Source: Eledone cirrhosa (lineage: Eukaryota). Taken from it: a stretch of 64,000 nt of DNA. The notes beneath the pieces are model-generated. The model was not told the DNA's origin. It worked only from the letters and a program-made list of their open reading frames with translations, and ran no database searches. Made by a program: the position numbers and the translations under genes. Below, one piece after another: positions 3,987 through 51,574 of this stretch. Numbering within the stretch: the first letter of the stretch is position 1; each line of letters starts with the position of its first letter. Location: contig OZ024743.1 in the NCBI GenBank assembly GCA_964016885.1, positions 343,170,001-343,234,000 on the forward strand, written 5' to 3'.

Positions 3987-4330
3987 ATCATCATCATCCG
4001 GCGGCCTCAGCCGAAATCGACTCAGCAATTGATCTCCACGTGGGTCTGTCATTCATTGCCGCTGCCAAATCCTGGATTTTAATACCAGAATCTCTGGAGA
4101 TGACATCGGGATAAGAGAGCTTGCGCCATCTGTAATTAGTGACTGCTTGTGGTTTCCAAAGCACTAATTGTGACACAGCCCCATAGGTGGCACGATGGCA
4201 GTGGCCAGCAAATCTTACTCTCCTTTTACGTACAACGACAGATATGCGTGGGAGGCCGGCATATATCTCTCTCAAAGTCAGATGTCGCCAGCTTATGTTC
4301 TGAATGCGTTGTTGTTTGGATGAAAGCGTC
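3987..4330 (-). mobile_element. RTE-type LINE 3' end
   Basis: LPRISVVVRKRRVRFAGHCHR..LVLWKP..YPDVISRD..AMNDRPTWR followed by a (GAT)n tail. Confidence 0.75.
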
Positions 4331-4486
4331 CATGTTTCACTTCCATATATAAATAAGTATTATATATTTTTTTGTTTTACTATATATATATATATATATA
4401 TATATAACGAAGGAAATGTGGTAAGGAATCAGATAGACCATAACGCACAAAAGTACTCAATACTTAGGGTAGTAGAGTGGGTAATA

Positions 4487-4600
4487 GGAACAAGTATGAC
4501 CCCGACGGCGGAGCTCAAGCCATTTCGACGGCTAATTCTGGACTAAATAAGAATTTTTAGCCTGGTAAATAAATAGCCGAACTTCTCAGGGGGTAATTCC
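4487..4600 (-). ncRNA. Type I hammerhead fold with variant core (pseudo-LTR copy 1)
   Basis: acccc-CTGAGAA-g..cggcta/tagccg..c-GAAA-tggc/gccg-TC-ggggt. Confidence 0.7.
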
Positions 4601-5047
4601 ATATATGGGAAGATAGTAATTGTCAAGAGGATTGGTAAAAAATTTGTTGTAAAGACAGTTGATTCTATCATGGCATTTAGTGGAAGGTAGGGTGGGGGTA
4701 GCTGAACTTGCTGGTAGAACAAAGAGGGAGTGGGGGAAGCCCAGTCAAGCGTTGAAAGTGAAATCTATACGGCGGATTCTAAGGATAGTGTATAGAAGGT
4801 CGAAAAAAGTGTATTGGAGAAGGGGAGGGGGGAGTTTAAAAAGTAGGTAAATCGAAAGGGAGTAAACAAACGAGCCATTATAAAGATGAGGAGATAAATA
4901 TATAAAAAAAATATATATATAAACAAACAGCAATTTCTGGTTACTATTCCATCCCCAGCATCCCCAAATCTCTCATTGGTATTGTTAAGCTATAGAAAAG
5001 TTTAATAGGTGGAGAAAAATGCTAAATGCGGGATTGTAGTGAAAGCA

Positions 5048-7158: not shown

Positions 7159-7566
7159 CTATTAAACTTTTCTATAGCTTAACAATACCAATGAGAGATT
7201 TGGGGATGCTGGGGATGGAATAGTAACCAGAAATTGCTGTTTGTTTATATATTTGTTTTTTTTATATATTTATCTCCTCATCTTTATAATGGCTCGTTTG
7301 TTTACCCCCTTTCGATTTACCTACTTTTTAAACTCCCCCCTCCCCTTCTCCAGTACACTTTTTTCGACCTTCTATACACTATCCTTAGAATCCGCCGTAT
7401 AGATTTCACTTTCAACGCTTGACTGGGCTTCCCCCACTCCCTCTTTGTTCTACCAGCAAGTTCAGCTACCCCCACCCTACCTTCCACTAAATGCCATGAT
7501 AGAATCAACTGTCTTTACAACAAATTTTTTACCAATCCTCTTGACAATTACTATCTTCCCATATAT

Positions 7567-7680
7567 GGAATTACCCCCTGAGAAGTTCGGCTATTTATTT
7601 ACCAGGCTAAAAATTCTTATTTAGTTCAGAATTAGCCGTCGAAACGGCTTGAGCTCCACCGTCGGGGTCATACTTGTTCC
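7567..7680 (+). ncRNA. Type I hammerhead fold with variant core (pseudo-LTR copy 2)
   Basis: CTGAGAA 7578-7584; GAAA 7641-7644; GTC 7661-7663; stem I acccc/ggggt plus ggaa/ttcc. Confidence 0.7.
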
Positions 7681-7717
<37 letters not shown>

Positions 7718-8512: not shown

Positions 8513-9132
8513 TCGAGTAAAAGAGGGCAAATACCTAATTTGTGTTTAATGAATAAAAACAGAGGATTAATTGAAAATGAAAATAGAAATAGTGGGAGAA
8601 GGAAAAGTGAAACAATGAAAGAGAGAGAAACAGCAGAGTGGAAGTAAGATGTTGTAATAGTATATGATAGTGAGTGCCAATAAGAGAAGCTAAAATAACG
8701 CTGGAGGTGAGCGGGAGTGACAACGGTGGGGTGGACATTGTGATTATGAGACAGCGTCTACGTGACATTTTTGATCTCTTTCATCCTTCCAGAATAGATA
8801 ACATAATTACCAGTCAAGTACTGGTCGATATAATTGACTGTTCCCTCCTGCAAAAATTTCCGACATTGTGTCTATCTAAAAAACAGTATTAGATTAAAGA
8901 GAAACAAAACATACGGACTGACAGTATTAAGGAAGAACTGAAAGAATAAAGGATAAGGTAAGAGAGAGAGGGGGAACAAGGAGGAGGAGAAAAGACAAAG
9001 AATAAAATATATGGAAAGGGATGGGTGAGTGGAAGTAAGAGGTGGTAATTGAGATTGTGGTAAGAAGAGATAATGTGTCCCTTGATTCAGCAAAATGTTA
9101 CTAGCGGAGGAGCAGATAATAGTTACATACAT

Positions 9133-9346
9133 GGTGGCTGCCAACTCGTTTTCGAGTACGGCCACTACTTTATATCCATGTAGGAGAACCCCTACCGATC
9201 CGCTGAACGAGTGTGACTTTTTAGTCCAGCCAGCGACTTGAAAACTCTGGTACAAACACTACACTTGTGACAATTATTGACACATAGTGCTGGGCCCATG
9301 GCACCATGTGACGACAAGTGCAGAGAGATCGCCAGATATAAAGCAA
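9133..9346 (-). mobile_element. RTE-derived non-autonomous element type X, 3' part
   Basis: Same sequence as the copies at 22963 and 24389; encodes a C2H2 remnant CSVCTRVFKSLAGLKSH; (TATG)n on both sides. Confidence 0.75.
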
Positions 9347-9400
9347 TACATACATACATACATACATACATACATACATACATACATACATACATACATA

Positions 9401-9650
9401 CAATCCATTAAAAATATGTAAAACATTCCAAAAATTCTGTACAGATACAAAGCATATGCACATGCACACATACAACTCAAAACATACACATCCACACATA
9501 CAGTAACATCCATACCTGCATACATGCAGACATGCGTACATACCTTGATGTTGTGTAAATTCCAATGAGTGATTCTTGTATCTATGTTAGAAACTGACTC
9601 TCCCTCTCTCTCTATTGGCAAACATTTGTGAAATTATAGAACCAGAAGAA
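9401..9650 (+). mobile_element. R4-clade family A 3' end within (CATA)n
   Basis: Matches the 3' UTR of the 12973 and 35478 copies; ends accagaagaa|catacataca; (CATA)n also upstream. Confidence 0.85.
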
Positions 9651-9660
9651 CATACATACA

Positions 9661-10213
9661 TGAGGATTGCAGCATGTTCACAGACGATTGCCGTCTCTTA
9701 TAGATTCTTCATTGTCATCCTATTAGCGTCCATGACTTCGTAGATGACTTTGTAGACCAGCTGTAGATCTGCATGGTTTACGACACAGGTGACAAAAGAG
9801 AGTTGTGCTTTCCACAGGACCGGTGGTGGCACCCTGTGGGACACAATCTTTATGTACCACCATGTGTCTTTTTAGTTCGGAACTAGTTCTACACACTTCG
9901 TTGCATATCACACACGTTGTTTCGCCAGGTCTTTGTTGAGTCGTGTTGCGGGTGGTTATTCAGGTGTTTAATATAACCAGCCTCGGAGAGGAGTACACGC
10001 TGACAGAAATTGCATGTCCAACTACTGATGACTTCATCGAGACTGTGAGCACAGCCCTTCCGGAGCTAACGCTTCAGTTGTTTATGTTCCAGACGACATT
10101 CCTCAAAAGTTTTACAACTGCCCTTTATGCGCTTTCTCCATGTAGCCCTATTTAGAGCTATCTACTTCCAGTTGTCTATATCAAATGCCAGCTCTTTGAG
10201 GTTGTTCTTAGAA
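9661..10213 (-). mobile_element. RTE LINE 3' end with two C-terminal C2H2-like fingers and a (TATG)n tail
   Basis: KNNLKELAFDIDNW..ALNRATWRKRI..CKTFE, then CNEVCRTSSELKRHMVVH and CHLCRKPCRSTAGLQSHLRSH. Confidence 0.7.
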
Positions 10214-10949
10214 GGAGGCGGTGATGAGGATTAGGAAGAGATGCTTAAAGCATTGCGAAAGAATTATACATTTAGAAATATATAATAGATTACATCTCTG
10301 TGTTCGTGTTCTTCATATATTTGAAAAACCAACAAAGTTAATTACAAATTTAATACATTTAGTTTAATGTTCGAAGTAAAAGTTAAAGTATGCTTTATAA
10401 CTACACAATAAAGATAAATTCTACCTCCGCGAGAGTCAAATTCATAACTTAAATCTTAGGTAATAAATGACATGGCCACTACCACCACCCACAAAAAAAA
10501 GGAAACAGTAACAATGTCTTACACAATTAGTGCCTGCGCGTATCGACCTATTCTCAGCTGAGTATTAACAAGTCGCTCTACGCATTACACCAGTGCAACG
10601 AAAAAATTCAATTGAATTAATAGTAAGATGTAATAAGATTTATACACTGAGTTACTTGATCAAAACGCACAACTTTCCTTTTTATATCATCATGAGCCGG
10701 CATTTGATCAGATCATAGTATAAATTAAGAAATAAGAAAAAGTTAATAAGCGATTAAACTTGTACGATATTCAATTTAATGTTTAAAGTGAAGTTATTTC
10801 AAGTGCTTTGTACGCTCACGCAAATAAAGATAAAGTAGATCTCGCCTGGAGTTAAGCTCACAATGTGTGTGTAGCTAGATTTTAATGGAATAACAAAGAA
10901 AATTGAAGCTGGCCAATATTACAATATTCGCAATATTAGCGCTATGCAC

Positions 10950-11754: not shown

Positions 11755-11890
11755 AACAACGTGACCTTAATCATCTGGGATATGCCTATCCAAACTGACA
11801 AGGAGGTCAAGACAAACCGTCCAGTTATAATAATCGCGGACTAGAACAAAAATACATTTATACTGTTAGATATCACGATCCCGTCTGATC
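11755..11890 (+). mobile_element. R4-like restriction-like endonuclease fragment (divergent family)
   Basis: Translates IIWDMPIQTDKEVKTNRPVIII..ILLDITIPSD. Confidence 0.6.
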
Positions 11891-11969
11891 AAAATACTGC
11901 CTGAAAAAAATTGGGAAAACTTTTCAAACACAAGAATAACAAAGTCGAAATAATTTTGCTGTGAGTTAT

Positions 11970-12246
11970 GAAGAAGAAGAAGAAGAAGAAGAAGAAGAAG
12001 AAGAAGAAGAAGAAGAAGAAGAAGAAGAAGAAGAAGAAGAAGAAGGAGAAGGAGAAGGAGGAGAAGAAGAAGAAGAAGAAGAAGAAGAAGAAGAAGAAGA
12101 AGAAGAAGAAGAAGGAGGAGGAGGAGAAGGAGAAGGAAAAGGAGGAGAAGAAGAAGAAGAAGAAGAAGAAGAAGAAGAAGAAGAAGAAGAAGAAGAAGAA
12201 GAAGAAGAAGAAGAAGAAGAAGAAGAAGAAGAAGAAGGAGAAGAAG
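11970..12246. repeat. (GAA)n/(GGA)n trinucleotide microsatellite
   Basis: Directly visible. Confidence 0.95.
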
Positions 12247-12972: not shown

Positions 12973-14493
12973 TCTGTAATAAAGAACGCGTAACCAGGGA
13001 ATACTACACCCGATTAAGAAAGATCTAGTCATCGGAACTCTCTGCGCAAAACAAAACAGTGGCTCACAATGTGTTTGCTGTGCCTGTCCTAACACCAACG
13101 TTTGGAATACTCAATTGGACGATAGACGAAATCCGAGCAGTTGATGTTGGAACTCGAAAAATACTGAACAACACCGGAAACTTCCACATCAACAGTGACA
13201 TAGACCGCCTTTACTTGAAACGTAAGCAGGGAGGCAGAAGCCTAACATCAGTCCAGACAACATTTGAATGTCGCATCATATCTCTCCGACAACATCTACG
13301 AACCTCGAAGCGTAGGAGCCCGTTTCTCGAACAAGTCTATCTGCATGAAACAGATAAGATCATGAGAGTTGGGAAGGAACTCCTCGAGAGATATTCCTTC
13401 TGTGATAATCAAAAACTCACTCCCGGGGACGTCGCTCAGCAGTATCGCAGTGAATCCATGGATGAAAAACTGCATGCCTATCAGCAAAAAATCATGCATG
13501 GATATGTTGCCAGGAAGCTCCAGAGTGAGAGTAATATAGATAAGGAAAGTAGTCTATCTTGGACCAACAATTTGAAGGATACGCTTTTGCAATCCAGGAA
13601 GAGGAGATTAACACGAAATACCTGATTCACAAAAGAGATAGGGATGCAGGCAAAACACCTAGATGTGATAACAACTGCAGACTCTGCAGAACTAACATCG
13701 AGGATATCACCCATGTCATCACCAGCTGCCCAAAGATGTCATCGCGGTACTATCTACCTATGAGGCAAGATGTAGTGGCCAAAACACTGTACAATGCAAT
13801 TCGTAAAAAAGATAGCCCGATAATAAACACATTAAAGCTACAGCAATGTGGAAGACATCCATGTACATAATATGAAAGAGTACTGGTGGAATGTTCCAGT
13901 AAAAACCCCAATAAAAAGCAGGCATAACAGACCAGATATTATGATATGGGACAGGGAGAAGAAAGCATGCACAGTAGTGGAAATTAGCTACCCAGCAGAT
14001 GCCAATATAATATCAAAGATTAGTGAAAAGGAGAATATTTATGCAGAAATGATGAGAAATCTGCAGATACTCCACCCTGATTACACCTTCATATTTATGC
14101 CTGTGATTAATGGGGCACTGGGATATGTTAGTAACTGCCTCAATACAAATCTTGAGAAGCTAGGCTTCACAGGAACAGAAAGAACACAACTAGTTAGGAA
14201 ATTACAAGTACAATCCATTAATGGAACCGTAAAAATATGTAAAACATTCCAAAAATGTTGCATCTAATAACTGCATATACACATGTACAGATGCAAAGCA
14301 TATACACATGCACACATACAACTCAAAACATACACATCCACATATACAATAACATCCATATCTACACATGCATGCATACATACATATCTACCTAGTTGAT
14401 GTTGTGTAAATTCCAATGAGAGAGTCTTGTGTCTATGTTAGAAACCGACTCTCTCTATTGGTAAAACTTTGTGAAATTATAAAACCAGAAAAA
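12973..14493 (+). mobile_element. R4/Dong-clade non-LTR retrotransposon, family A (5' truncated)
   Basis: Thumb region AHNVFAVPVLTPTFG; zinc knuckle CRLC..HVITSC; endonuclease YWWN..HNRPDI..VEISYP..EKENIY; 3' end joins (CATA)n at 14494-14612. Confidence 0.92.
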
Positions 14494-14623
14494 CATACAT
14501 ACATACATACATACATACATACATACATACATACATACATACATACATACATACATACATACATACATACATACATACATACATACATACATACATACAT
14601 ACATACATACATAGCTAGCTAGT

Positions 14624-15180
14624 TGTGATAGCTAGAACCATCTGGTGCGCACTTAGGAAAACAAAATTAAAAACAAAGGAGGAGGAATATGTTGAGACAG
14701 ATGGCACTAAGGAATACTGGTGGAACCTGAAAATAAAAGCTGCCATCAAATTAAAGCACAACCGGCCTGATATTGTTGTTTTGGAGCACACAATGAAAAC
14801 GTGCTCCGTTGTAGAGATCAGCTGCCCACTTGATGTAAACGTTGTCAGAAAAATACAGGAGAAGGAGGACATCTACGGACCATTGATGAGGAGTTTGCAG
14901 ATCCAGTATCCAAGATACACTTTCAGCTTCATACCCATCATTATTGAGCTACAGGTTATATACCAACCCGCTTGCACCAAAGTATGACTGAACTTGGATT
15001 TGTGGACAAAGAATGCAACCCCCTAATTCATAGACTACCAAATGGCTGCGATATCTGGCACCTTCAAAATTTGCAAAACATTCTTGCGATTCAAGAGAAG
15101 GCAATTTCTTTTCTTTTACAACCTTGCCAGCAGAAAGGTGGCCGGTCAAAAATGTACTCGAAATTAAGAGAAAAAGAAAC
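14624..15180 (+). mobile_element. R4-clade family B 3' part
   Basis: EYWWNLKIK..HNRPDIVV..VEISCP..EKEDIY; homologous to 44983-45549. Confidence 0.88.
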
Positions 15181-15237
15181 ACATGTATTCATATATACGA
15201 GTGTGTGAAGGCGTGTAGATGTGTGTGCGTGCGTACC

Positions 15238-19310: not shown

Positions 19311-19589
19311 CCTGCCAATGACTGGCATTCTTTTCTGCATATGTTGCAATAAAAAAGAAGCCTTTTCGATTGGCTACAGCGAGCTATGCTGATGCAACAC
19401 ATGTGAAACTATGGTGACAGATATCCAAATAGAGTAGGTCAACATCATTGGTTGCCATCTAGCTGCAGTTTTTTATCAGTTTTCCTTCGCCTGTCAGATT
19501 ACAGAAAATGGTACACCTTTAGGCTACGGCCAGCCTCATGAACCTGTAACATATCCTGAATAAGCAATGCCTGTGCTTTGAAGGTTTTT

Positions 19590-19983
19590 TAAGTGAGGAA
19601 AGGCCTTGCACTCGACCAATCCCACTCGCTGAGCATCGAAAACACTACCAGAAAAGGAGAACTGGTCAACATCATCGGATGTTTCCGAAGCCACAGGTTT
19701 TTTTTTTTTCAGGGTTTCCCTTTCCTAGAAAGGTGTTGTGACAACAACTGGGGGCCTTTCACTTCCAGGTGGGCGAAAAAAAATGTACTATTTGGATGGC
19801 CATTGACTCTGTTGAGTTCCTCCGCCCTTTGCCGGGTCTTGTATTTCATCCCGCAGGGTGTCCAAATATCACCCTCCTCACCAAGCTAGCTTCGTGGGGT
19901 TGCCGGTTTAGTCGCCGACGACCCGACTGTGAGACAGGTTGTCCTGGGTTACACGTTACCAGTAGCACTCGTGAGCGACCTGA
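19590..19983 (-). mobile_element. RTE-derived non-autonomous element (type Y-like), 5' part
   Basis: Homologous to 20577-21205. Confidence 0.7.
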
Positions 19984-20067
19984 CATACACACATACATAC
20001 ATACATACATGCATACATACAGACAGACAGACAGACAGACAGACAGAAGACAGACAGAAAGACAGAC

Positions 20068-20398
20068 AAGTCTTGAGAAGCTGGGCTTCACAGAACCAGG
20101 AAGAACAATACTAGTTAGGAAAGTACAAGTACAATCCATTAATGGAACAGTAAAAATATGTAAAACATTCCAAAAATTCTGCATGTACTCATGTACAGAT
20201 ACAAAACATATGCACATGCACGCATCTAACTCAAAACATACACATTCACACATACAATAACAGCCATACCCGCACACAGACGCATGCATACATCTAGTTG
20301 GTGTTGTTTATTTCCAAAGAAAGAGTCATGTGTCTATGTTAGAAACCGACTATCTGTCTCTATTCGTAAACATTTATAAAATTATATAACCAGAAGAA
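20068..20398 (+). mobile_element. R4-clade family A 3' end
   Basis: LEKLGFT..VQSINGTVKICKTFQK; ends cagaagaa|catacatac. Confidence 0.85.
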
Positions 20399-20576
20399 CA
20401 TACATACATACATACATACATACATACATACATACTCTGCTAAGATTATTGCAATCGTTTGTCAGATTCAAATGTTGACGCTCAGATATGGCTTTTCAAA
20501 CCTGCTAGAGACTTGCACTCCTTCGCACATGGATCTCCCTGGCCTCAGGTCTTGCATTATACATACATACATACAT

Positions 20577-21205
20577 GATGATGGCTGCCCCCTCGTTATC
20601 GAGTATGGCCATTGCACGATATACCATTATTAATAATTATTAATTAATTCTATCATGCAATGCCTGTGCATGAAGATATTTTTTAAAGTGAGGAAAGGCT
20701 GTGCACTGAGCCAATCCCACTCTCTGAGCGACAGTAGCTATAACCCGAAAAGAAGAAAAGATCAACAACATCGGTAACTACTGAGCCGCAGGTTTTATAT
20801 CAGAGTTATCCCAGTTTCCCGAGTTGCCTTCTCCTAGAACAATGCCCTGACAAAGGCTAGGGGTCCTTCACTCCCAGTGGTTTAACCGCGCGACCGTGTG
20901 TCCAGCCCGACTATTTCTATGTCCCCGCGCATATACATACAGATGCACCCATGTATATACACATATACATATACATACATATGCACATGTGTATATACAT
21001 ACATATGCACATGTGTATATACATATTTACACACTTTCGGATGGCCGTTGACTCTTATGACTTCTTCCGCCCCTTGTTAGGTTTTGTTTTTTGTCCTGCA
21101 GGGTGTCGAAAATCCCCCTCCTCACCAAGTAAACTTGGTGGTGTTGCCGGTTTAGTCGCCGGCGACTCGACCATGCGAAAGGTTGTACTGGATTACATGT
21201 TACCA
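20577..21205 (-). mobile_element. RTE-derived non-autonomous element type Y
   Basis: Repeated at 23393 and 38090; RTE-5'UTR-like ..ctaggagaaggcaactc.. motif; (TATG)n tail. Confidence 0.75.
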
Positions 21206-21864
21206 CATAGATATGTATGCACATTTATATATATATGCTTATACATATACATATATTTATATTTATCTATACATATATGTTATGCACATATGTATGTGTG
21301 TGCATGTGTATACATGTGTGTATGTATGTGTGTATGTGCTTGTGTGAATGTTTCCCTAAGTCTATGTGTTACTAACAAACAACCATACATTTATTAATAA
21401 GTTATTTTCAAATGATTGAGGAATTGGAAGAACTGGAAAAGAGAAAAAGTAAAAATAGCAGTAGAGAAAAAGAAAGACTCAGGCAAAAAAAAAAAAATAA
21501 CAAATAAAATAAAATAAAATAAAATAAAATAAAATAAAACAGAGAGAAAAAGTGAGAGAAAAGGAAAGAAACGGGGAAATGAGAAAAAAATCACGAGAAA
21601 AAATCTAAAGAGAGGATGTCAGTATGAGATATGGTGAGGATAGATGAGATAGAGTGAGGCGAAGATTGGGCGGGGTGTGTGAGAGAGTAAGATAATGAGT
21701 CAGAGATAATAAAGACATGCAATACTATTAACTATCACATGTTCTCTAATAATGATCCTTTCAGCAGGAATCCGTATCATGTCAACAGGTTTAGTGCCAT
21801 GTTAACATGACGTTTGTCTTCTTAGATTGTGTTATTCTCTTTATTATCATTGCTGCAGCGTTAA

Positions 21865-22515: not shown

Positions 22516-22539
22516 TTATTGAAACAGCAAAGATATGCA

Positions 22540-22788
22540 CCAACCTGTCTGAATTAAAGTACTGCTGAACTTCGATTCTTTGAGAAAGAACGTAACATCT
22601 TATTTCATACACTCAGAGAATCACGATATCTGGGACAATAACATTCTGCAAGAACATCTTAAAATTTGAAGGATAAATAGGCGCGCAAAGGATAACAGAT
22701 GAAACAAAACCCTTTTCTTTAAAACCTAGTCACCGGGCAGGTGACCAATCAAAATAACCGCTAAATCCCGCAGTCAAGAAGAGACACT
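22540..22788 (+). mobile_element. R4-clade family C 3' end (diverged)
   Basis: ISGTITFCKNILKFEG* resembles the C-termini of families A and B; 3' UTR hairpin; followed by (TACA)n. Confidence 0.6.
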
Positions 22789-22962
22789 ACATACATACAC
22801 ACAAACATGCATACATACAATTACACACACACATACATACATGTGTACATACATACATGTGTACATACATACACACACACACACATGCGTACATGCATAC
22901 ATACATACATACATACATACATACATACATACATACATACATACATACATACATACATACAT

Positions 22963-23330
22963 GGTGGTGGCTGCCAACTCGTTTTCGAGTACGGCCACTA
23001 CTTTATATCCATGTAGGAGAACCCCTACTGATGCGCTGAACGAGTGTGACTTTTTAGTCCAGCCAGCGACTTGAAAACTCTGGTACAAACACTACACCTG
23101 TGACAATTATTGACACATAGTGCTGGGCTCATGGTACCATGTGACGACAGGTGCAGAGAGATCTCCAGATATAAAGCAATACCTGTGCCGTGAAGCTTTT
23201 ATAGTGAGCAAAGGCACTGCACAAAGCCAGTCCCACTCTCTTAACCAAGATGATATTTACCAAAAAGAAGAACAGGTCAACATCATTGGATACCATCAGG
23301 GCTGCAGGTGTTATATCAGAGTTTTCCTTC
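22963..23330 (-). mobile_element. RTE-derived element type X (5' truncated)
   Basis: Matches the 24389 copy; (CATA)n on both sides. Confidence 0.8.
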
Positions 23331-23392
23331 ATACATACATACATACATACATACATACATACATACATACATACATACATACATACATACAT

Positions 23393-23928
23393 GGTGGCTG
23401 CCCCCTCGTTATCGAGTATGGCCATTGCACGATATACCATTATTAATTATATCGTGCAATGCCTGTGCGTGAAGATATTTTTTAAAGTGAGGAAAGACTG
23501 CACTGAGCCAATCCCACTCTCTGAGCGACAGTAGCTATAACCCGAAAAGAAGAAAAGATCAACATCATCGGTAACTACTGAGCCGCAGGTTTTATATCGG
23601 AGTTATCCCAGTTTCCCGAGTGCTTTCTCCTAGAAGAATGCCCTGATAAAGGCTAGGGGTCCTTCACTCCCAGTGGTTTAACCGCGCGACCGTGTGTCCA
23701 GCCCGACTATTTCTATGTCTCCGCGCATATACATACAGATGCACCCATGTATATACACATATACATATACATACATATGCACTTGTGTATATACATACAT
23801 ATGCACATGTGTATATACATATTTACACACTTTCGGATAGCCGTTGACCCTTATGAGTTCTTCCGCCCTTTGTCAGGTTTTGTTTTTTGTCCTGCAGGGT
23901 GTCCAAAATCACCCTCCTCACGAAGTAG
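23393..23928 (-). mobile_element. RTE-derived element type Y
   Basis: Matches the 20577 copy; (CATA)n on both sides. Confidence 0.8.
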
Positions 23929-23944
23929 ACATACATACATACAT

Positions 23945-24310
23945 GATGGCTGCCCCCTCGTCATCGAGTATGGCCATTGCACGAGAAAAAATATATATAT
24001 ATATATTAATAACAATAATAATAATAATAATAATAACAACAATAATAATAACGACAACAACAATAATAATATACATATATATATATATACACACACGCAC
24101 ACATAAACATATCTATACACACACACGATAGCAATTAACAGCGCTGCGATCAAATGTGGCTTTTTAGCCCAGCCAATGATCTAAAATGTCTTGCACAGAG
24201 TCGGCAACCAAAACATTCACTGGGAATAGCCGGCTGTGGTTGGAGTTCATGTACTTTTGCATGTCGTTTGAGCCCTCCTGCTGATTTACATTCTCTACCA
24301 CATGCTTGGC
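23945..24310 (-). mobile_element. RTE LINE 3' end with two C2H2 fingers, sharing the type Y terminus
   Basis: CQACGRECKSAGGLKRHAKVH and CRLCARHFRSLAGLKSHI*; terminal 40 bp match the type Y terminus; interrupted by a TA/AAT tract. Confidence 0.65.
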
Positions 24311-24388
24311 ATACATACATACATACATACATACATACATACATACATACATACATACATACATACATACATACATACATACATACAT

Positions 24389-24982
24389 GGTGGCTGCCAA
24401 CTCGTTTTCGAGTACGGCCACTACTTTATATCCATGTAGGAGAACCCCTACAGATGCGCTGAACGAGTCTGACTTTTTAGTCCAGCCAGCGACTTGAAAA
24501 CTCTGGTACAAACACTACACCTGTGACAATTATTGACACATAGTGCTGGGCCCATGGTACCATGTAACGACAAGTGCAGAGAGATCTCCAGATATAAAGC
24601 AATGCCTGTGCCGTGAAGCTTTTATAGTGAGCAAAGGCACTGCACAAAGCCAGTCCCGCTCTCTTAACCAAGATGATGTTTACCAAAAAGAAGAACAAGT
24701 CAACATCATTGGATACCATCAGGGTTGCAGGTGTTATATCAGAGTTTTCCTTCTCCTAGAATTCTGCCTTGACAAAGGCTAAGGGGTCATCTCTCCCGGT
24801 GATTTTGGATGGCCATTGACTCTTAAGAGCTCCTTTGCCCTTTGACAGGTTTTGTTTTTAGTCCTGCAGGATGTCCAAAGTCACCCTCCTCACCAAGAAA
24901 CCTTGGTGGGGTTGCCAGTTTAGTCGCCAACGACCCGACCATGAGACAGGTTGTACTGGGATACATGTTACCAGTAGCACCA
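24389..24982 (-). mobile_element. RTE-derived element type X, near full length (about 594 bp)
   Basis: 5' part shared with type Y, 3' part carries the C2H2 remnant; flanked by (CATA)n at 24310-24388 and 24984-25090. Confidence 0.8.
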
Positions 24983-25470
24983 ACATACATACATACATAC
25001 ATACATACATACATACATACATACATACATACATACATACATACATACATACATACATACATACATACATACATACATACATACATACATGGCTTCTGTG
25101 GTGACCTCTATGACCTACTCTCCTGAGGCAAATTCAGCCACGCTCATTGCACATAAAATCATCTTGAACATCTGAAAATCCTGGTAAAGTAATAGACGTA
25201 TAAAGTACTATGTATAAAGTCATTCTAAAATGTAGTAAGTACTTGTTAGGCCATGCTTCGTTAAGAAGATCTAATAATACCGAAACATGTCCGAAGTTGT
25301 CATTATCAAAAATCAGACTTACTCCCCAATGCATATCTCCAATAAATGTTTATTCAATTTAAATTTCGAAGTTCTTTCCCTTGTCTTTCTTGATAAGAAT
25401 AGTCATTAACCTCACTGGTGCTTCTTCTCGTAATTAGATTTCTCGCAATGATGTTTCTTCTCCCAATTAA

Positions 25471-34930: not shown

Positions 34931-35040
34931 ACATTCCAAAAATTCTGCATCTAATAACTGCATGTATACATGTATCTATGTTAGAAACCGACTCTCTCTC
35001 TTTATTTGTAAACATTTATAAAATTATAAAACCAGAAGAA
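34931..35040 (+). mobile_element. R4 family A 3' stub within (CATA)n
   Basis: Ends accagaagaa|catacg. Confidence 0.8.
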
Positions 35041-35080
35041 CATACGTACATACATACATACGTACGTACGTACGTACATA

Positions 35081-35386
35081 CTACGAACCACCGGTGAGGA
35101 ATTTGCAGATCCAGTAGCCAAGATGCACCACCAGCTTTATACCTAACATTATTGGAGCTACAGAATATATACCAACCCGCCTGAACTTGGAGTTGTGGAG
35201 AAAGAATATAACTCCTTCATTCCGAGGTTACAAATGGTCGCGATATCTGGAACCTTCAAAACACTCTTACAATTTAAAGGATGAATTATTGCACAAAAGA
35301 CGACGGAAATTTTCTTTTCTTTACAACCTTGTCACGGGGAAGGTGGCAGGTCAAAAATAAACTCGAAATTAAGAGAAAGAGAAGAA
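35081..35386 (+). mobile_element. R4 family B-like 3' end within (CATA)n
   Basis: Homologous to 45240-45549; ends gagaagaa|catac. Confidence 0.75.
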
Positions 35387-35477: not shown

Positions 35478-38078
35478 CCAGAAAGACATAGATTCCTTTT
35501 GGAGAAAAGTATGGGGTGAAAAGAAGAATTTCAACCAAGATGCAGTGTGGCTAAGAGAAATCCAAAAGAACTATTGCTCCTACACTACAACAAAAACATA
35601 CGAAATAAGTGAGGGTACCCTTGAGACTGTGATAGGAAACTCCAAGATAAGAAAACACCAGGAAGAGACATGATTGTCGGCTACTGGTACAAAAAACTAA
35701 TATTCTATCGGAGGTATCTTACTGACCTCTACCAACAAGTTCTTAAGGAGGATACACTTATACCAGGATGGTTGACATTAGCACAAACGTTACTGGTCCC
35801 CAAGAACAAAGACACCCACTTGGCAAAAAACTACCGACCCATTGCATGCCAGAACCTGATGTATAAGATGTATACAGCCTGCCTGAACCTATTCCTCCAA
35901 GATTACTGTGAAAATAATAACATCATCCCAGATGAACAAGCAGCTGGAAAGAAAGGGGTTTGGGGATGTGCTGAACAACTCCTAATCAACAAAACTGCGA
36001 TGTCGGAGGTGCGACAACTTAGGAGGAATATGACTACAGTCTGGCTGGACTACAGGAAAGCTTTCGATTCTGTTCCCCACTCTTGGATGATAGAGGCCCT
36101 CCAACTTGCTAAAGTCCCAGACATTATTGTCAGAGCCATAGAGAGGCTGTCTTCTTCTTGGGCTACTATCCTAAGGTTAAAGACAGAGAGGGAGGACTCT
36201 ATTTTCACTGATAAAATAAAATATTGCAGGGGTATATTTCAGGGGGACAGTCTCTCTCTGGGATATTGTTCATCTTGTCATTAAACCCCTTGTCCTTTCT
36301 GCTCAAGAAATGTGAGGGATACATCATTGGCTCACAGGAGGACAGAAATACGAAACTAACCCATAATTTCTTTGTGGACGATCTGAAACTCTATACCAAA
36401 ACATGGATGGGATGAAGAAAAATCTTGACCTGGTTACAACATTCTCAAAGGATATAGGAATGGAGTTTGGCCAAGATAAATGCTCATACATGACTGTAGA
36501 GCGGGGAAAAACAACAACCCAATCTAGCAACATTGTCATCAATGGTCTAACTGTTTCACCGATATCTGATGAGGACTGCTACAGATACCTGGGGATAGAT
36601 GAGAACATATCCTATAATGGTATCTGTAATAAAGAACGCGTAACCAGAGAATACTACACCCGATTAAGAAAGATCTGGTCATCGGAACTCTCTGCGCAAA
36701 ACAAAACAGTGGCTCACAATGTGTTTGCTGTGTCTGTCCTAACACCAACGTTTGGAATACTCAATTGGACGATAGACGAAATCCGAGCAGTTGATGTTGG
36801 AACTCGAAAAATACTGAACAACACCGGAAACTTCCACATCAACAGTGACATAGACCGCCTTTACTTGAAAGATATGATGTCGCATCATATCTCTCCGACA
36901 ACATCTACGAACCTCGAAGCGTAGGAGTCCGTTTCTCGAGCAAGTCTATCTGCATGAAACAGATAAGATCGTGAGAGTTGGGAAGGAACTCCTTGAGAGA
37001 TATTCCCTGTGTGATAATCAATAACTCACACCCAGGGATGTCGCTCAGCAGTATCGCAGTGAATCCATGGATGAAAAACTGCATGTTTATAAGCAAAAAA
37101 ATCATGCATGGATATGTTGCCAGGAAGCTCCAGAGTGAGAGTAATATAGATAAGGAAAGTAGTCTATCTTGGACCAACAACCGCTATATTGGCTCCCACT
37201 TTGAAGGATACGCTTTTGCAATCCAGGAACAGGAGATTAGCACGAAATACCTGATTCACAAAAGAGATAGGGATGCAGGCAAAACACCTAGATGTGATAA
37301 CAAGTGCAGACTCTGCAGAACTAACATCGAGGATATCACCCATGTCATCAGCAGCTGCCCAAAGATGTCATCGCGGTACTATCTACCTATGAGGGATGAT
37401 GTAGTGGCCAAAACACTGTACAATGCAGTTCGTAAAAAAGATAGCCCGATAATAAACACATTAAAAGCTACAGCAATGTGGAAGACATCCATGTACATCA
37501 TATGAAAGAGTACTGGTGGAATGTTCCAGTAAAAACCCCAACAAAATGCAGGCATAACAGACCAGATATTATGACAGGGAGAAGAAAACATACACAGTAG
37601 TGGAAATTAGCTGCCCAGCAGATGTCAATATAATATCAAAGATTAGCGAAAAGGAGAATATTTATGCAGAACTGATGAGAAATATGCAGATACTCCACCC
37701 TGATTGCACCTTCAGATTTATGCCTGTGATTATTGGGGCACTGGGATATGTTAGTAACTGCCTCAATACAAATCTTGAGAAGCTAGGCTTCACAGGAACA
37801 GAAAGAACACAACTAGTTAGGAAGTTACATGTACTATCCATTAATGGAACAGTAAAAATATGTAAACAAATTTGCATCTAATAACTGCATATACACATGT
37901 ACAGATACAAAGCATATACACATGCACACATACAACTCAAAACATACACATCCACACATACAATAACATCCATATCTACACATGCATGCATACATACATA
38001 TCTATCTAGTTGATGTTGTGTAAATTCCAATGAGAGAGTCTATTGGTAAAACTTTGTGAAATTATAAAACCAGAAGAA
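35478..38078 (+). mobile_element. R4/Dong-clade retrotransposon family A, longest copy (RT + CCHC + endonuclease, frameshifted)
   Basis: NYRPIAC, EQAAGKKG, WLDYRKAFDSVPH, GIFQGDSLS, FFVDDLKLY, YRYLG, CRLC..H..SC, HNRPDI, EISCP; (CATA)n at both junctions. Confidence 0.95.
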
Positions 38079-38089
38079 CATACATACAT

Positions 38090-38628
38090 GATGGCTGCCC
38101 CCTCGTTATCGAGTATGGCCATTGCACGATATATCATCATTAATAATTATTAATTAATTCTATCATGCAATGCCTGTGCGTGAAGATATTTTTTTAAGTG
38201 CACTGAGCACTGTGCACTGAGCCAATCCCACTCTCTGACCGACAGTAGCTATAACCCGAAAAGAAGAAAAGATCAACATTATCGGTAACTACTGAGCCGC
38301 AGCTTTTATATCGGAGTTATCCCAGTTTCCTGAGTTGCCTTCCCCTAGAAAACTGCCCTGACAAAGGTTAGGGGTCCTTCACTCCCAGTGGTTTAACCAC
38401 GCGGTACATGTGTATATACATATTTACACACTTTCGGATGGCCGTTGCATCTTATGAGTTCTTCCGCCCTTTGTCAGGTTTTGTTTTTTGTCCTGCAGGG
38501 TGTCCAAAATCACCCTCCTCACCAAGTAAACTTGGTGGGGTTGCCGGTTTAGTCGCCGACGACCCGACCATGCGACAGGTTTTCTGGGCTACATGTTACC
38601 AGTAGTACTCCAGAGTGACCCGACATAA
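38090..38628 (-). mobile_element. RTE-derived element type Y
   Basis: Matches the 20577 copy; tail-to-tail with the R4 copy. Confidence 0.8.
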
Positions 38629-38642
38629 CGTACATACATACA

Positions 38643-38982
38643 TATGGGACAGGGAAAAGAAGGTATGCACAGTAGTGGAAGTTAGCTACCAAGCAGATAC
38701 CAATATAATATCAAAGATTAGCGAAAAGGAGAATATTTATGCAGAACTGGTGAGTAATTTGACGATACTCCACCCTGATTATGCATGCAGATTTATGCCT
38801 GTGATTATTGGGGCACTGGGATATGTTAGTAATTGCCTCAGTACAAATCTTGAGAAGCTGGGCTTTACAGAAACAGAAAGAACACGACTAATTAGGAAAT
38901 TACAAGAACAATAAAAATATATAAAACATTCCAAAAATGTTGCATTTAATAACTGCATGTGCACATGTGTAGATGCAAAACA
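38643..38982 (+). mobile_element. R4 family A endonuclease fragment
   Basis: IWDREKKVCTVVEVSY..EKENIY; begins in (CATA)n. Confidence 0.85.
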
Positions 38983-39369
38983 TATTTTGGTGGGTTATAT
39001 TACAAATATTTTTCCTCACTAAAATTTGATTTCTCTTGTTTTTTTGCAGAAAATTTGAACTCTGAACTGGAGGTTTAAGTACAAATTGACAATCACAGCG
39101 ATAAATTATTTGCAACAGAAATGGAGAGGTAGAAATCTGATGAGGGTTTCTCAATGAAATAAAGTAGTTTCTATATTTCCTTGCTGTTGTTTCTTGTTTG
39201 AATTATTACATGATAGCAGAAAAACCGCCCTTCGGCCAGTTTTCTGCTAGCATATGTAGTGTGTTTATTGGTATTATACGCAAATATATATATGTAAATT
39301 GAAATGTAAATTGACAATATTTTTTTCTTCTTCGCCCACTTATTTCTGAGAGGGTCGTGGGGGCAGAGT

Positions 39370-39935
39370 CCTTCTCAAACACTCCTTCCAGCGAGTCTGT
39401 CAGAAGCAAACATCTCTAACTGATGCAGCTGGATCCCAAAGCGTGACCAGCCAAGCTCAGGGTCTACCTCTGGGTCTCTTGCCGGTTGGTTTTGCCTGTA
39501 AAATGTGTCCAGCGATTCTTTACTGAGACATTATAACCACATGCTTATAATATCGGAGTTGTGATCTCTCAATTCGGAGAAGTAGCGACTCTACCAGGAG
39601 TGACTCTCTGGTCTCTGAGTTATGCACTTTATCGAGTAACGTTACTCCAAAGACCCTTCGGAGGAATCCAATTTCTGCCGCTTTTATTTGCAATTGTATT
39701 CTTTTAGTCAAGATTCATGATCCTCAGTAAGAGTTGGAAGGAATACCAGGAAGACAGCGAGTTTGGCTTTTACACATACCCCCTTCTTCTGATTGCTAAA
39801 TGGTGGGGCTAGCGCATTACTACATCAGCTTTTGCAATTCTTGCACTTAATTCAGCATCCTGCATTCCATCACTCATGAACACGGCTCCAAGATACTTGA
39901 ACTTCTCTAACTGCTTCAGTAGAACTCCATACACA
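39370..39935 (-). mobile_element. RTE LINE 3' fragment
   Basis: IKAAEIGFLRRVFGVTLLDKVHNSETRESL..RSQLRYY. Confidence 0.8.
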
Positions 39936-40174
39936 TGTATATACATTTGAGGGATTTCTGTCCACCCGTCCATCACACAATGTGTTTATGTGACATCATC
40001 ATTCTCATCACCATCATGTGTTTATGTGTTTGTGTGAATGTATGTGTGTGTAAAAGGAAGGAAAGGGATACACACATATATGTCTCTAACTTAAAAACAG
40101 TGACGCACACACACCTACATGTCTCTAATTTAAGAACATCGACAAACTCGCGCGTGCACATACACACACTGTCC

Positions 40175-43560: not shown

Positions 43561-43591
<31 letters not shown>

Positions 43592-43625
43592 CATACATAC
43601 ATACATACATACATACATACATACA

Positions 43626-45549
43626 GTCGTGGTGTGGCTGGACTATCAAAAAACATTTGATAGTGTACCTCATGGGTGGATTGTTAAGGCTTTACAGTTA
43701 ACCAAAGTCCCACAACCACTGGTAGCTGCTGTTGAACGTCTGACCAAGAACTGGTACACCAATTTGATCCTTAGAAGTGAGAAGGGCAAGTTAAGACTGA
43801 TAAGATACATTACCAGAAGGGCATCTTTCAGGGTGATAGCTTGTCAGTGCTACTCTTCGTTCTCTCACTAAATCCACTATCTTACCTACTCAGGAAACAA
43901 GGTGGACAAAGAAGTGGGTCCAGAAGTATCTCCCATCTTTTCTTTGTTGATGACCTGAAGTTGTATGGGCCAAATATCAATGACATCAAGAAACAATTGG
44001 ACTTCATTACACAATTTTCAACAGACATCAAAATGAAATTTGGTGTGTCCAAGTGTGCATATTTGGAAGTAAAACGTGGAAGAGCTGTGCCCTCCTCTAG
44101 AAATCTAGAGATGAACGGCCTGACAATACAACCTCTACAGTCAGGTGACAACTACAGATATCTTGGACAGGGTGAGAATGTCAGATATGATGGACCCATA
44201 AATAAGGAGAGAACCAGAACTGAATACCTCAGAAGAGTAAAGAAAATATGGTCATCAGAACTGTCAGCGTACAACAAGTACATTGCCCACAATACTTATG
44301 CTGTGCCAATTCTAACGCCAACATTTGGCCTGCTGAACTGGTCATTGCAAGAACTAAGTGAGATGGATGTTAGAACTCGCAAACTTCTCAGTGTTACTGG
44401 GAACTTTAACATCAATGGTGATGTGGATAGGCTATACTTCTCACGCAAGGAAGGTGGCCGGGGTCTAAAATCCATATTAACATCATGAGACTCGGATAGT
44501 AACACTGAAGCAACATCTTCAACAGAGGAAAAAGGTTGGCAACCATCTTGCCCAGGTTTATGAGCATGAAGAAAAAAATATCATTAGGATAGCCACTGAT
44601 CTGGAGAAGAGATATGGAATAAAGCCTGATATAAATCTCTCACCCAGAGAAATCGGGAGATCCTATTCAATGTTCAAACAAGATAAAAAAATTGACCAAT
44701 TTACAGAAAAAGTTGTGCATGGATACTGAGACGTAAAACTCAGGCCATAGAGGGGATAAACCACTCAAAAAGCCTGGCATGGAGTTCCGACAAGTTTATG
44801 ACATCACACCTTGAGGGATATCTCTATGCAATACAGAAACAAGAACTCCCTACCAAATATCTGCTGCACAAAAGGGGAGGGCCATCAGCTGACAATAAAT
44901 GTAGGCTATGTAAAACAAAGATCGAGGATGTAAGCCACATTGTTGCCAGCTGCGAAAGAATGTCATCTCGCTACTACCTCCCATGAGACACGATGGGATA
45001 GCTAGAACCATCTGGAACGCACTTCGGAAAACAAAATTAACAACAAACGAGGAAGAATATATTGAGACAGATGGCACTAAGGAATACTGGTGGAACCTGA
45101 AAATAAAAACTGCCACCAAATTAAAGCACAACCGGCCTGATATTGTTGTTTGGGACCACACATTGAAAACGTGTTCTGTTGTGGAGATCAGCTGCCCACT
45201 TGATGTAAACGTTGTCAGAAAAATACAGGAAGAGGACATCTACGGACCATTGATGAAGAGTTTACAAATCCAGTATCCAGGATACACCTTTAGCTTCATA
45301 CCCATCATTATTGGAGCTACGGGTTATATACCAACCCGCTTGGACCAAAGTATGACTGAACTTGGATTTGCGGACAAAGAGCGCAGCTCCCTAATTCATA
45401 GTTTACAAATGGCTGCGATAGCTGACACCTTCAAAATTTGAAAAACATTCTTGCGATTCAAGGGATAACAATTTCTTTTCTTTTACAACCTTGCCACCAG
45501 GAAGGTGGCCGGTCAAAAAAATATACTCGAAATTAAGAGAAAGAGAGAA
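43626..45549 (+). mobile_element. R4/Dong-clade retrotransposon family B (5' truncated, degenerate)
   Basis: WLDYQKTFDSVPH, LFFVDDLKLY, YRYLG, CRLC..H..SC, RHD, HNRPDI, EISCP; (CATA)n 5' (43562-43625) and 3' (45550-45560). Confidence 0.93.
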
Positions 45550-45985
45550 CATACATACATGTCATAACTGTTCATCATATATTTTCTGACCATCAGACAT
45601 GTTGTAGCATGAAAGGAAGAAAGAAGTATACATGTTGTTTTATGGTTCTATTTTCTATCTTTATATATGGTTCCTGTTTAATTAAATAATTAGTATGGTC
45701 TCCTCTTATCATTTAAACCGAAAAACTGTTCTTTCATTGATCGTAATAGAGGAGCTATCTCTTATCTTGATCACGAAGCAGATAACTTTAAATATACAAT
45801 AAGGCTGCTTTCTGATATCAGGTCGTTTGATTATTGTGTAATGGATATTTCATTAGTAGTAAATACAAGTTCGTTCGTTTTTGCTTGTTTGTTAATTTGT
45901 TGTTGTTGTTGTTTTCTTATATGCTTAAATGAAGTGTATAAACCACTCTAAGCAAAAGTTTTCTTCCATTCTTTTATTCGTATAT

Positions 45986-48762: not shown

Positions 48763-50861
48763 TATAGCGAGATTACTGGTTGCATGAATGTAACAAAACG
48801 AGACAATGTTTGTGTATATAATATTTAATTAACGGTAGATAGAATACTTGACATGTCAAAGATAGATGTTAGAATGAAACAAAGTTAGTAGTTACCGTTT
48901 TGATTGCCAGGCAAACGCGGCTGGCAGAGGGCGCCTGGCTAAGGCCAGGCGCCTGTTGGCCAAATTAATGGCAGAGCCAAATGAGAAGACTCTTGACCTG
49001 GTGCCGAAAAGGCAAAGAGAGAGGAAGGAAGCTTAACGTTGTTAGTTTTATAGGGCTCTGACCGGAAGTTGCAGAAAGGGTTCCACTTCCCGTCTAGATC
49101 CCAATCAAAACAAGGGAGACAACCGCTACATAACCTCCCGCCAGAATTTTAGTGTATAAAAATCGAAATGAAAATATGTAGCAAGTTGGCGAGAATGTTG
49201 TAACAGGCATGAAAATTACGAAAGAATGTTTGGAAAAATCAATGATAGATATCAAGGTAGCCAACCGCTCTTGGCCAGAGAACGACTGGACATCCATCTA
49301 TCCATCACCCAAAGACACAATGTAATAAAGTAAAAGTAATAGAAGAGCTCAAAGCTCAAAATATAGTTCACAGGTGTGCAATCACATGACAGCAGGAAAG
49401 AAAGTGTGTTCCAGAGAATGAATGCAGGTGGTTTCTGTTCTGTGGTATATCGTGAAATTTCCAACCTCCGAATGGATTTTCTCACAGGAAGAGTGCTGCA
49501 AAAATGAATTCTCTGGCTTTGGTGAAGCTGTATTGATGTATTGCTGTTGCTGTTATATTGCTGTTGCTGCTGCTGTTGTCTCGCTGAGTGAGCGTATTCG
49601 GTGTTTAAATTCACAGTAAAAAATTTTTTTTTTTAGAAAAAAATGAGTTGCGCAAAGTGCTAGAAATAGCAGCCGAAGTTGATGGTCGATGTTGAGAATG
49701 CGTTGACCTGGAAGGGTCAAGAGGCCAGCGACCAGAGAAATAAGCATTCCCAATAAATGCGCGGTTATCAACGGTAAATTTACATTGTAAATTTATAAAC
49801 CGGCAAATAGAAGAATATAGCTTAAGGCTGAAGAATCCCTGGTGATAAATGGCGTGCGGCTGTCTGTGAGAAGAGACATCTCAGTGAATCGAGAATTTAT
49901 GCTGCCTACACGTGCCAATACAAGGTTGAAAAAAAAATATTTCTAACGCGCGAGAAAAAGATAGTGCAATTTTGAAAGTGACAATGATGAAAAAGAAAGG
50001 CTTCAATCAGCATAATTATAGGTGTGAACTTTGGAAAAAAACAAAAAACTTGAACGATGAAGAAAACGAAGAACAAAAGGCAATGGTTCATCGAAAATAA
50101 ATGTTCCTGTTGAAATGTTTTTTAAAGAATATCAAATTTCTTTTTTTTTTTGTGTTTTGAAAGAGTTCGTTGTAAGAAACGAGAAACATATATATATATC
50201 GTGAAATGTTTTTTTTTGTTTTGAAAGTGTTCGTTGTAAGAAACGAGAAACATATATATATATATTGGTGAAATGCGACAGTTAATTGATGCGTGAGAGA
50301 AAAAGTATGTCTGTGCGAATTCCACATGTGCGTGTGTGCGTGTCCTTGAGTATTTTCATAGTTTGTCGCTAAATTTGCTGTGTATTCGTAATGTTACTCA
50401 CAAAACCAGATGTGCTATTTTTTTCTTTTTTTTGGGGGGGTGACCCTTATAGCGATGAACGGCTGCGTGTTCGTATCACGTCGGGGTCACCAATATAGCG
50501 AGATTACTGGTTGCATGAATGTAACAAAACGAGACAATGTTTGTGTATATAATATTTAATTAACGGTAGATAGAATACTTGACATGTCAAAGATAGATGT
50601 TAGAATGAAACAAAGTTAGTAGTTACCGTTTTGATTGCCAGGCAAACGCGGCTGGCAGAGGGCGCCTGGCTAAGGCCAGGCGCCTGTTGGCCAAATTAAT
50701 GGCAGAGCCAAATGAGAAGACTCTTGACCTGGTGCCGAAAAGGCAAAGAGAGAGGAAGGAAGCTTAACGTTGTTAGTTTTATAGGGCTCTGACCGGAAGT
50801 TGCAGAAAGGGTTCCACTTCCCGTCTAGATCCCAATCAAAACAAGGGAGACAACCGCTACA
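48763..50861 (-). mobile_element. Non-autonomous LTR retroelement (Gypsy-type signals), 2099 bp, inserted in a SINE
   Basis: 368-bp LTRs at 48763-49130 and 50494-50861 with no differences seen; AGCC TSD; tRNA-Trp PBS; PPT ggcgggagg; TATA ctataaaa and attaaa on the minus strand; no coding ORF. Confidence 0.93.
50461..50492 (-). promoter_or_regulatory. Primer-binding site complementary to tRNA-Trp (extended)
   Basis: Minus strand TGGTGACCCCGACGTGAT starts 1 nt after the 5' LTR; tRNA similarity continues for 14 more nt. Confidence 0.88.
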
Positions 50862-51324: not shown

Positions 51325-51574
51325 ATCTATCTATCTCGGGCGGGTAAAATTCTCGAGAACCATGGACGAGTTCTCTCCAGCGATCTCTTTCCTTCATCCT
51401 CGCCGCCATGTCCTGCGTCTCCAAGAGACCTGTGTCTGTCCTTATGGCATCAACATATGTCAACTTCGATCTCCATGTTCTAGTGTGTCCGTGTAGGGGC
51501 TTCCACAGGAGCACTGAGTGCAGTGTCAACTCTGGATATCGGTGAGCATGTCCAGCTAAGCTCAGTCTCCTCAT
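51325..51574 (-). mobile_element. RTE-type LINE 3' end
   Basis: RRLSLAGHAHR..LLWKP..LTYVDAIRTDTG..MKERDRWR with an (ATAG)n tail. Confidence 0.75.

Follow-up and report, generated by a model that had tools for sequence, protein, structure and literature searches.

The 64,000 nucleotides of Eledone cirrhosa DNA analysed here (assembly GCA_964016885.1, contig OZ024743.1, positions 343,170,001 to 343,234,000 of the forward strand; hereafter the window) contain clusters in which retrotransposons of two unrelated types, R4 and RTE, are interspersed with arrays of the tetranucleotide CATA. Our results suggest that both types probably insert into pre-existing (CATA)n, in opposite and fixed orientations, and that each insertion likely duplicates target sequence, so that chains of elements grow. 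The window is repeat-rich animal DNA without any long intact open reading frame (ORF). Of 23 listed sequencing runs, three from a single sample, possibly the one that the window comes from, contained 0.77-0.81 of its words and 17 under nine other labels 0.06-0.23, the last three being included by label alone; these shares carry no evidential weight here. Self-comparison combined with profile searches identified 20 copies in six clusters, ten R4-type (families B, C and D) and ten RTE-type (short families A0, A1 and A2 plus three coding 3′ fragments), all copy counts given below being those of the window. The ten R4-type copies all lie on the plus strand, their sense strand reading CATA, and the ten RTE-type copies all lie on the minus strand, reading TATG.

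Element chains in (CATA)n arrays

A first-pass annotation had described the stretch at 22.5-25.1 kb as a chain of five elements separated mainly by CATA arrays, and this description was borne out. The chain starts with one plus-strand R4-type 3′ end and continues with four minus-strand RTE-type elements, neighbours being separated by (CATA)n arrays that range from 3 to about 43 units:

~22520-22787, plus strand: R4-type 3′ end assigned to family D, a relative of window family C; covers the final ~60 codons, with two frameshifts seen by eye, and the 3′ untranslated region (UTR); left edge approximate, abutting a repeat resembling a short interspersed element (SINE)
22788-22962: (CATA)n array, impure at 22788-22895 by the R4 end, pure (CATA)16 from 22896 by the RTE end
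22963-23329, minus strand: short RTE-type A1, 5′-truncated; C2H2 finger remnant, stop, short 3′ UTR
23330-23392: (CATA)15 array
23393-23928, minus strand: short RTE-type A2, ~70 nt missing at its 5′ end; degenerate TATG-like tract inside
23929-23944: (CATA)3 array
23945-24309, minus strand: coding RTE 3′ end, 5′-truncated; two C2H2 fingers and, in the 3′ UTR, an AT/AAT tract; profile E 5e-11
24310-24388: (CATA)19 array
24389-24983, minus strand: short RTE-type A1, near full-length; shared 5′ part and RTE 3′ end
24984-25090: (CATA)26 array at the A1 5′ end, its right side without a recognised element

The leftmost element, undetected by the R4 protein profile, was placed by DNA similarity only: it scored 68 against window R4 family C DNA (the maximum of 500 shuffles being 32) and is 27% different from its nearest relative, the copy at 35086. 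The two A1 copies of the chain, at 22963 and 24389, show 10 differences over 363 columns. Over its terminal 65 nt, A2 is 86% identical to the coding fragment at 23945, and this coding RTE likely belongs to the same family that mobilises A2. A sixth element to the right of 25090 was considered and dismissed (E 0.36 in one profile, outside the top 25 of the finger profile).

Arrays border most element ends throughout the six clusters. Nine of the ten RTE-type copies have their 3′ end on (TATG)2 or more, the tenth, A0, being without a recognisable 3′ end, and 8/10 have an array at the 5′ end, in agreement with the first-pass description of minus-strand RTE elements that end in (TATG)n and usually also start with it. 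R4-type copies have arrays at 8/10 of their 5′ ends and 8/9 of their 3′ ends. These counts include four imperfect arrays (14614, 20069, 35086 and 38626) and exclude the degenerate flanks at 15181 and 21208. Outside the six clusters, two CATA/TATG units lie within 22 nt at 467/49754 positions (0.9%); against such a low background, array-flanked element ends far exceed chance. Half of the eight RTE 5′ arrays (9349, 19992, 24984 and 38633) are not the tail of another RTE, and clusters 2 (12975-15181) and 6 (43564-45561) contain R4 only, no RTE having been found in them by self-comparison or profiles.

The 5′ junctions also carry a signature. Six truncated copies have a longer sibling that shows what they lost, and the nucleotides common to the array and this missing part number 4, 1, 2, 4, 4 and 3, a total of 18 nt as compared with 4.7 expected (simulation, p=0.0016); a seventh junction (20069, 3 nt) was omitted from the test owing to its CAGA-like flank. 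This microhomology fits joining to array DNA at insertion, or later deletion from the array, and both origins imply that an array was needed on the 5′ side. A unique target duplication was found at 0/6 clusters, the longest shared words measuring 4-7 nt, a length also reached by 7-94% of randomly paired flanks; such duplications might have been lost where insertions are old or nested.

The remaining clusters are composed as follows:

Cluster 1, 9128-10215: RTE A1 (9132-9347, minus), (CATA)13, R4-B (9403-9650, plus), short array, coding RTE 3′ end (9662-~10209, minus), the latter with a 5′ junction without array
Cluster 2, 12975-15181, plus strand: R4-B (12975-14493), (CATA)30, R4-C (14625-15181)
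Cluster 3, 19500-21208: RTE-type A0 (to 19982, minus), CATA/CAGA array, R4-B (20069-20398, plus), (CATA)9, RTE 3′ fragment (20436-20558, minus), short array, A2 (20578-21208, minus)
Cluster 5, left part, from 34868: (CATA)16, R4-B (34934-35040), array, R4-C (35086-35385), (CATA)20
Cluster 5, right part, to 38985: long R4-B with reverse transcriptase (RT), CCHC finger and restriction-like endonuclease (RLE) (35478-38078), short array, RTE A2 (38091-38626, minus), short array, R4-B fragment without 3′ end (38645-38985)
Cluster 6, 43564-45561, plus strand: (CATA)15, 5′-truncated R4-C with RT, CCHC and RLE (43626-45550), short array

The arrays at 19982-20068 and 35041-35085, beside R4 5′ ends, shade from CATA into CAGA or CGTA units. 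Degenerate CATA/TATG-like tracts also occur inside elements, in the 3′ UTR of R4 family B (37887-38001) and in the 5′ part of A2 (20930-21025), where they are common to the copies and may record past target-sequence capture. CATA lies on the plus strand in 6/6 element-bearing clusters (9349-45559; two-sided p=0.03), nearby SINE-like repeats being found in both orientations; a host transcription unit could bias array orientation.

Identity of the R4-type and RTE-type elements

The translations of the long plus-strand copies contain RT, CCHC finger and RLE motifs in this order, with Pfam RVT_1 matches at 35625-36281 (E 2e-11) and 43781-44485 (E 2e-8). A profile of 10 full-length homologues matches the window copies out to its C-terminal positions. 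These homologues have one ORF of 1130-1200 amino acids, with the CCHC pattern in 10/10, the PD..E pattern in 9/10 and an N-terminal C2H2 pattern in 0/10; the window copies are all 5′-truncated. R2 proteins are the best solved relatives of the homologue profile, and the named protein most similar to R4 family C comes from Argonauta hians (70% identity over 229 residues). Parts of PMC7998251 attribute to the R4 clade a divergent N-terminal Myb/SANT-like domain, and give rDNA (ribosomal DNA) or microsatellites as insertion sites of R4/Dong elements. The arrays on both sides of the window copies agree with microsatellite insertion; Pfam searches with five homologues gave no Myb match, the window copies being truncated before the N-terminal region. 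Judging from these sequence traits, the long plus-strand copies fit the R4 clade as presented there. Dong proper was rejected, as it needs a (TAA)n target and the window flanks are (CATA)n.

R4-type loci from a metagenome scan show which microsatellites their relatives adjoin. Among the best 80 of 370 confirmed loci, 34 reach the R4 C-terminus; going downstream, 17 of these first meet (AAT)n and 4 another microsatellite unit, the other 13 having none. Three loci of the same best 80 are bordered by (CTTA)n, two on the 5′ and one on the 3′ side (L001:1-58, L002:1-60 and L004:4651-4694); the L002 array mixes CTTA with CATA units, and the contigs of these loci stop at the arrays. We built an unrooted RT tree with 39 rows (2 window copies, 12 stored proteins and 25 loci whose RT segment was of sufficient length), in which both window families and all three (CTTA)n loci fall on one side of a 100/99 branch, opposite 17/17 rows labelled with (AAT)n at either flank; the (AAT)n-flanked side includes three insect proteins. 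Because the window families group with the (CTTA)n loci, apart from the (AAT)n ones, tetranucleotide targeting is likely to have been inherited within this R4 branch. Another RLE element fragment lies at 11764-12246 (R4 profile E 1e-7), directly followed by (GAA)92, and may represent one more family, aimed at another microsatellite.

The coding RTE fragment at 9943-10200 yielded 196 homologues in an index-free protein search and no matches in a word-index protein search. Among 18 homologues scanned, one contains Exo_endo_phos (apurinic/apyrimidinic endonuclease, APE) and one RVT_1 with DUF6451, and the C-termini of the homologues are of a type that we take to be typical of RTE. A profile built from them recovers the copies at 9662, 20436 and 23945 and all three A1 copies. 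The clusters hold only 3′ fragments of RTE, and 9/10 RTE-type copies have a short 3′ UTR with a microsatellite end. In a six-frame scan, 9/10 distinct RTE-type fingers above 14 bits lie in elements ending on CATA arrays, with constant polarity to the array; weaker RTE-like pieces at 4003-4356, 39454-39940 and 51347-51583 lie away from arrays and outside the copy count.

The short families A0, A1 and A2 have a non-coding 5′ part in common, at about 80% identity, and the RTE 3′ ends of A1 and A2 differ. The 3′ part of A1, with its finger remnant and stop, is an RTE-derived 3′ end, and A1 and A2 likely ride on coding RTEs. Pattern scans for these short elements revealed no relative in metagenome, viral and prokaryote collections. 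Rfam returned 86 rows of microRNA, snoRNA and similar families only, below gathering score and many on simple repeats, and no ribozyme or tRNA head was detected. The first 200 nt of the short elements (38430-38628, 19788-19990, 21035-21207 and 24803-24983) fold as a series of hairpins, with two-sided change in 3/44 predicted pairs of a four-sequence fold, too few for us to claim a conserved structure.

Order of insertion and alternative explanations

Drawing on known target-primed reverse transcription, we envisage that the R4 RLE would nick the TATG strand through its own sequence specificity, and that the RTE endonuclease would nick the CATA strand, the (UAUG)n tail of the RTE RNA then base-pairing with the DNA end at the nick and so priming reverse transcription. 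Passages of PMC6007223 propose that RTE tails guide site choice or priming through base pairing. Each event would split the array and, through staggered cuts, partly duplicate it, and replication slippage would regrow it into a larger target. Either clade may come first; RTE tails might occasionally add new arrays, on which R4 would not depend.

R4 and RTE 3′ ends meet tail-to-tail at the three joins already named in the first-pass annotation (9650/9661, 22788/22963 and 38078/38090) and at a fourth, 20398/20436, and head-to-head joins number three (9347/9403, 19982/20069 and 38626/38645), a nearly even split (binomial p=1). There are also three R4-to-R4 tandem joins; neither these, nor the head-to-head joins, nor the arrays at R4 5′ ends figure in the first-pass annotation. 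The nine R4 3′ ends face an RTE 3′ end in four cases, another R4 in three and no element in two. Since the opposite polarity of the two types is fixed, an R4 to the left of an RTE always produces a tail-to-tail join and an RTE to the left of an R4 a head-to-head one; tail-to-tail geometry is therefore uninformative on insertion order.

Relative ages were approximated by the private changes of each copy. A1 copies have 4, 2 and 2 of them over 214 columns and A2 copies 9, 9 and 19 over 421; R4 copies show more decay, with 14/195 (9403), 29/332 (38645), 37/288 (20069) and 48/286 (35086). At the join 9347/9403 the RTE (9132-9347, 4/214) is younger than the R4 (14/195; p=0.014), as it is at 38626/38645 (RTE 38091-38626, 19/421; R4 38645-38985, 29/332; p=0.024). 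The changes in the copies at 38645 and 35086, the most decayed of cluster 5 and both R4, are spread over codon positions (8/11/9 and 9/15/16, respectively), as expected of decay after insertion. In the chain at 22.5-25.1 kb, the A1 copy at 22963 is among the youngest RTE copies in the window, and the array at 22788/22963, pure by A1 and decayed by R4, hints that the R4 may be older; the R4 copy itself cannot be dated because its differences, distributed 16/11/20 among the three positions of 41 codons, do not tell age from family divergence. RTE copies, expected at first pass to be older than the adjacent R4, proved younger at 9347/9403 and 38626/38645, an outcome that the first-pass annotation had itself named as refuting its model; the expected order agrees with the join 38078/38090.

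Several points weigh against shared insertion into pre-existing arrays. Six clusters and 20 copies make a small sample. At 38078/38090 the R4 is as young as or younger than A2 (p=0.30 or 0.0015, depending on how the 48/1433 differences between the long R4 35478-38078 and its sibling are split). The RTE at 9662-10209, with its array-less 5′ end, could have founded cluster 1. Later deletions between array and element would yield microhomology too. The age proxy draws on 3-4 copies of each family, and subfamily structure may make copies look older than they are; the neighbours at 9662, 20436 and 22540, together with A0, are without close sibling. The R4 tree has neither an outgroup nor a named R4, Dong or Rex6 reference. 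Finally, in at least parts of a table of Octopus bimaculoides RTE non-reference insertions (about 210 rows; PMC9115989 supplement 1), a (CATA)n run appears in one target-site field, which speaks against general RTE targeting of CATA; this weighs little because the family is possibly different, the calls come from short reads and most listed rows give no duplication.

The one-way order of the first-pass annotation, in which RTE tails create (TATG)n arrays and R4 then inserts into these tails, appears improbable. That 9/10 RTE-type copies end on an array would suit it, as would the array-less 5′ junction of the RTE at 9662-10209, a long R4 (35478-38078) no older than the RTE that it faces, and the moth RTEs whose tails make new microsatellites according to parts of PMC2887409. 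However, the sign of this process given there, a unique duplication enclosing element and tail, is found at 0/6 clusters. Most RTE 5′ ends (8/10) themselves lie in arrays, two clusters are without RTE, the joins divide 4 versus 3 in their geometry, RTE is the younger partner at two of them, and R4 relatives elsewhere are already flanked by (CTTA)n. What our data support of that annotation is the broader idea of one microsatellite common to two clades, with chains grown by repeated insertion. The arrow could also be reversed, a tetranucleotide-targeting R4 keeping (CATA)n abundant and RTE families later capturing a complementary tail and following it, a scenario that we consider doubtful. It would account for the (CTTA)n/(CATA)n branch of the R4 tree, for R4 being the oldest copies of cluster 5 and for the TATG ends common to RTE types with unlike 3′ UTRs (A1, A2/23945, 9662 and 20436), and tail capture is among the proposals made in sections of PMC6007223. 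By contrast, ordinary slippage in a microsatellite-rich genome could equally supply the arrays (219 tandem-repeat rows are listed across the 64 kb). Very improbable, in our opinion, is a loose landing of RTE in AT-rich simple repeats without real targeting, pure arrays then resulting from later slippage, deletion and survival bias. The part of the O. bimaculoides table mentioned above does show target-site fields with AT-rich runs and hardly any (CATA)n, parts of PMC2887409 give RTE sites as not sequence-specific, and the A2 copy at 20578 has a merely degenerate AT-rich 5′ flank. Yet (TA)n, (TG)n and (GA)n arrays are plentiful in the window, and the strong RTE-type fingers nonetheless lie, with a single exception in ten and in one polarity, in CATA-ended elements.

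Beyond shared insertion into pre-existing (CATA)n, a more far-reaching scenario is conceivable and put forward tentatively. A deep R4/Dong branch would have switched from (TAA)n to C(A/T)TA and several octopod RTE families would have converged on the complementary (UAUG)n tail, with site specificity provided by tail pairing alone, such that endonucleases of two unrelated classes would together run and renew one dispersed microsatellite niche.

Known systems and other repeats in the window

That R4/Dong elements target microsatellites and that RTE elements have microsatellite tails is already known, and a new kind of element is not needed to explain the clusters. The window R4 copies have in common with Dong and Rex6 the order of RT, CCHC finger and RLE and the presence of a microsatellite on both sides. 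They differ in their target, (CATA)n as opposed to the (TAA)n that parts of PMC7998251 give for most insects, molluscs and cnidarians, and in their position in the tree, on a branch of their own together with relatives flanked by (CTTA)n. Dong-R4 is described as abundant and recently active in Octopus vulgaris in passages of PMC13282606, and parts of this source and of PMC9115989 indicate that both the R4/Dong and RTE clades are active in octopus; portions of the latter also describe an octopus RTE with a C2H2 finger and a microsatellite 3′ UTR.

Two target-sharing partners of opposite orientation have a precedent in the silkworm pair TRAS1 and SART1. TRAS and SART both belong to the R1 clade. 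According to parts of PMC7265360, the two families enter one simple repeat, (TTAGG)n, in opposite directions, which by geometry produces head-to-head and tail-to-tail neighbours. They form, however, a structurally similar pair in a telomere repeat, whereas the endonucleases of the window partners are unrelated to each other (RLE in R4 and presumably APE in RTE), and the microsatellite that they occupy is dispersed. The moth microsatellite-generating RTE, as presented in parts of PMC2887409, resembles the window RTE in its short 3′ UTR ending in a microsatellite and its many 5′-truncated copies; its repeat lies inside a unique target duplication at sites that are not sequence-specific, whereas in the window the repeat is found on both sides in 8/10 copies. 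The short A families recall the bipartite non-autonomous RTE elements Bov-A, RTESINE and RTE-N (parts of PMC5786205) in their size of about 550-630 nt and in having a common non-coding 5′ part on different RTE 3′ ends. In the latter the 5′ part derives from an RTE 5′ UTR, whereas the window holds no full-length partner. Further background is found in portions of PMC4640811, PMC5035012 and PMC7599744. Our literature search did not find an R4 branch that targets (CATA)n/(CTTA)n, nor target sharing between it and RTE, either of which may be contained in Repbase or in subscription works (e.g. Kojima and Fujiwara 2004).

If true genome-wide, shared insertion into (CATA)n would offer a natural test of whether the RNA tail of RTE, and not its endonuclease, selects the site; the single-step shift in R4 target, from AAT to CTTA/CATA, could likewise be used for mapping specificity. 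It would also partially account for the microsatellite load and repeat clustering of octopods. As a caution, octopod (CATA)n markers would in that case likely be flanked by multicopy elements.

The window contains other repeats besides these clusters. A 368-bp sequence is present at 48763-49130 and again, identical and in direct orientation, 1.36 kb further on at 50494-50861. The start of a primer-binding-site-like sequence adjoins the right copy on the minus strand, and a short duplication of the flanks was noted by eye; this pair is likely a very young non-coding long terminal repeat (LTR) element. A 525-bp inverted repeat of 98.7% identity (4484-5008 and 7159-7683, about 2.1 kb between) and a second inverted pair of 97% (1573-1699 and 2002-2129) are both likely DNA transposon ends.

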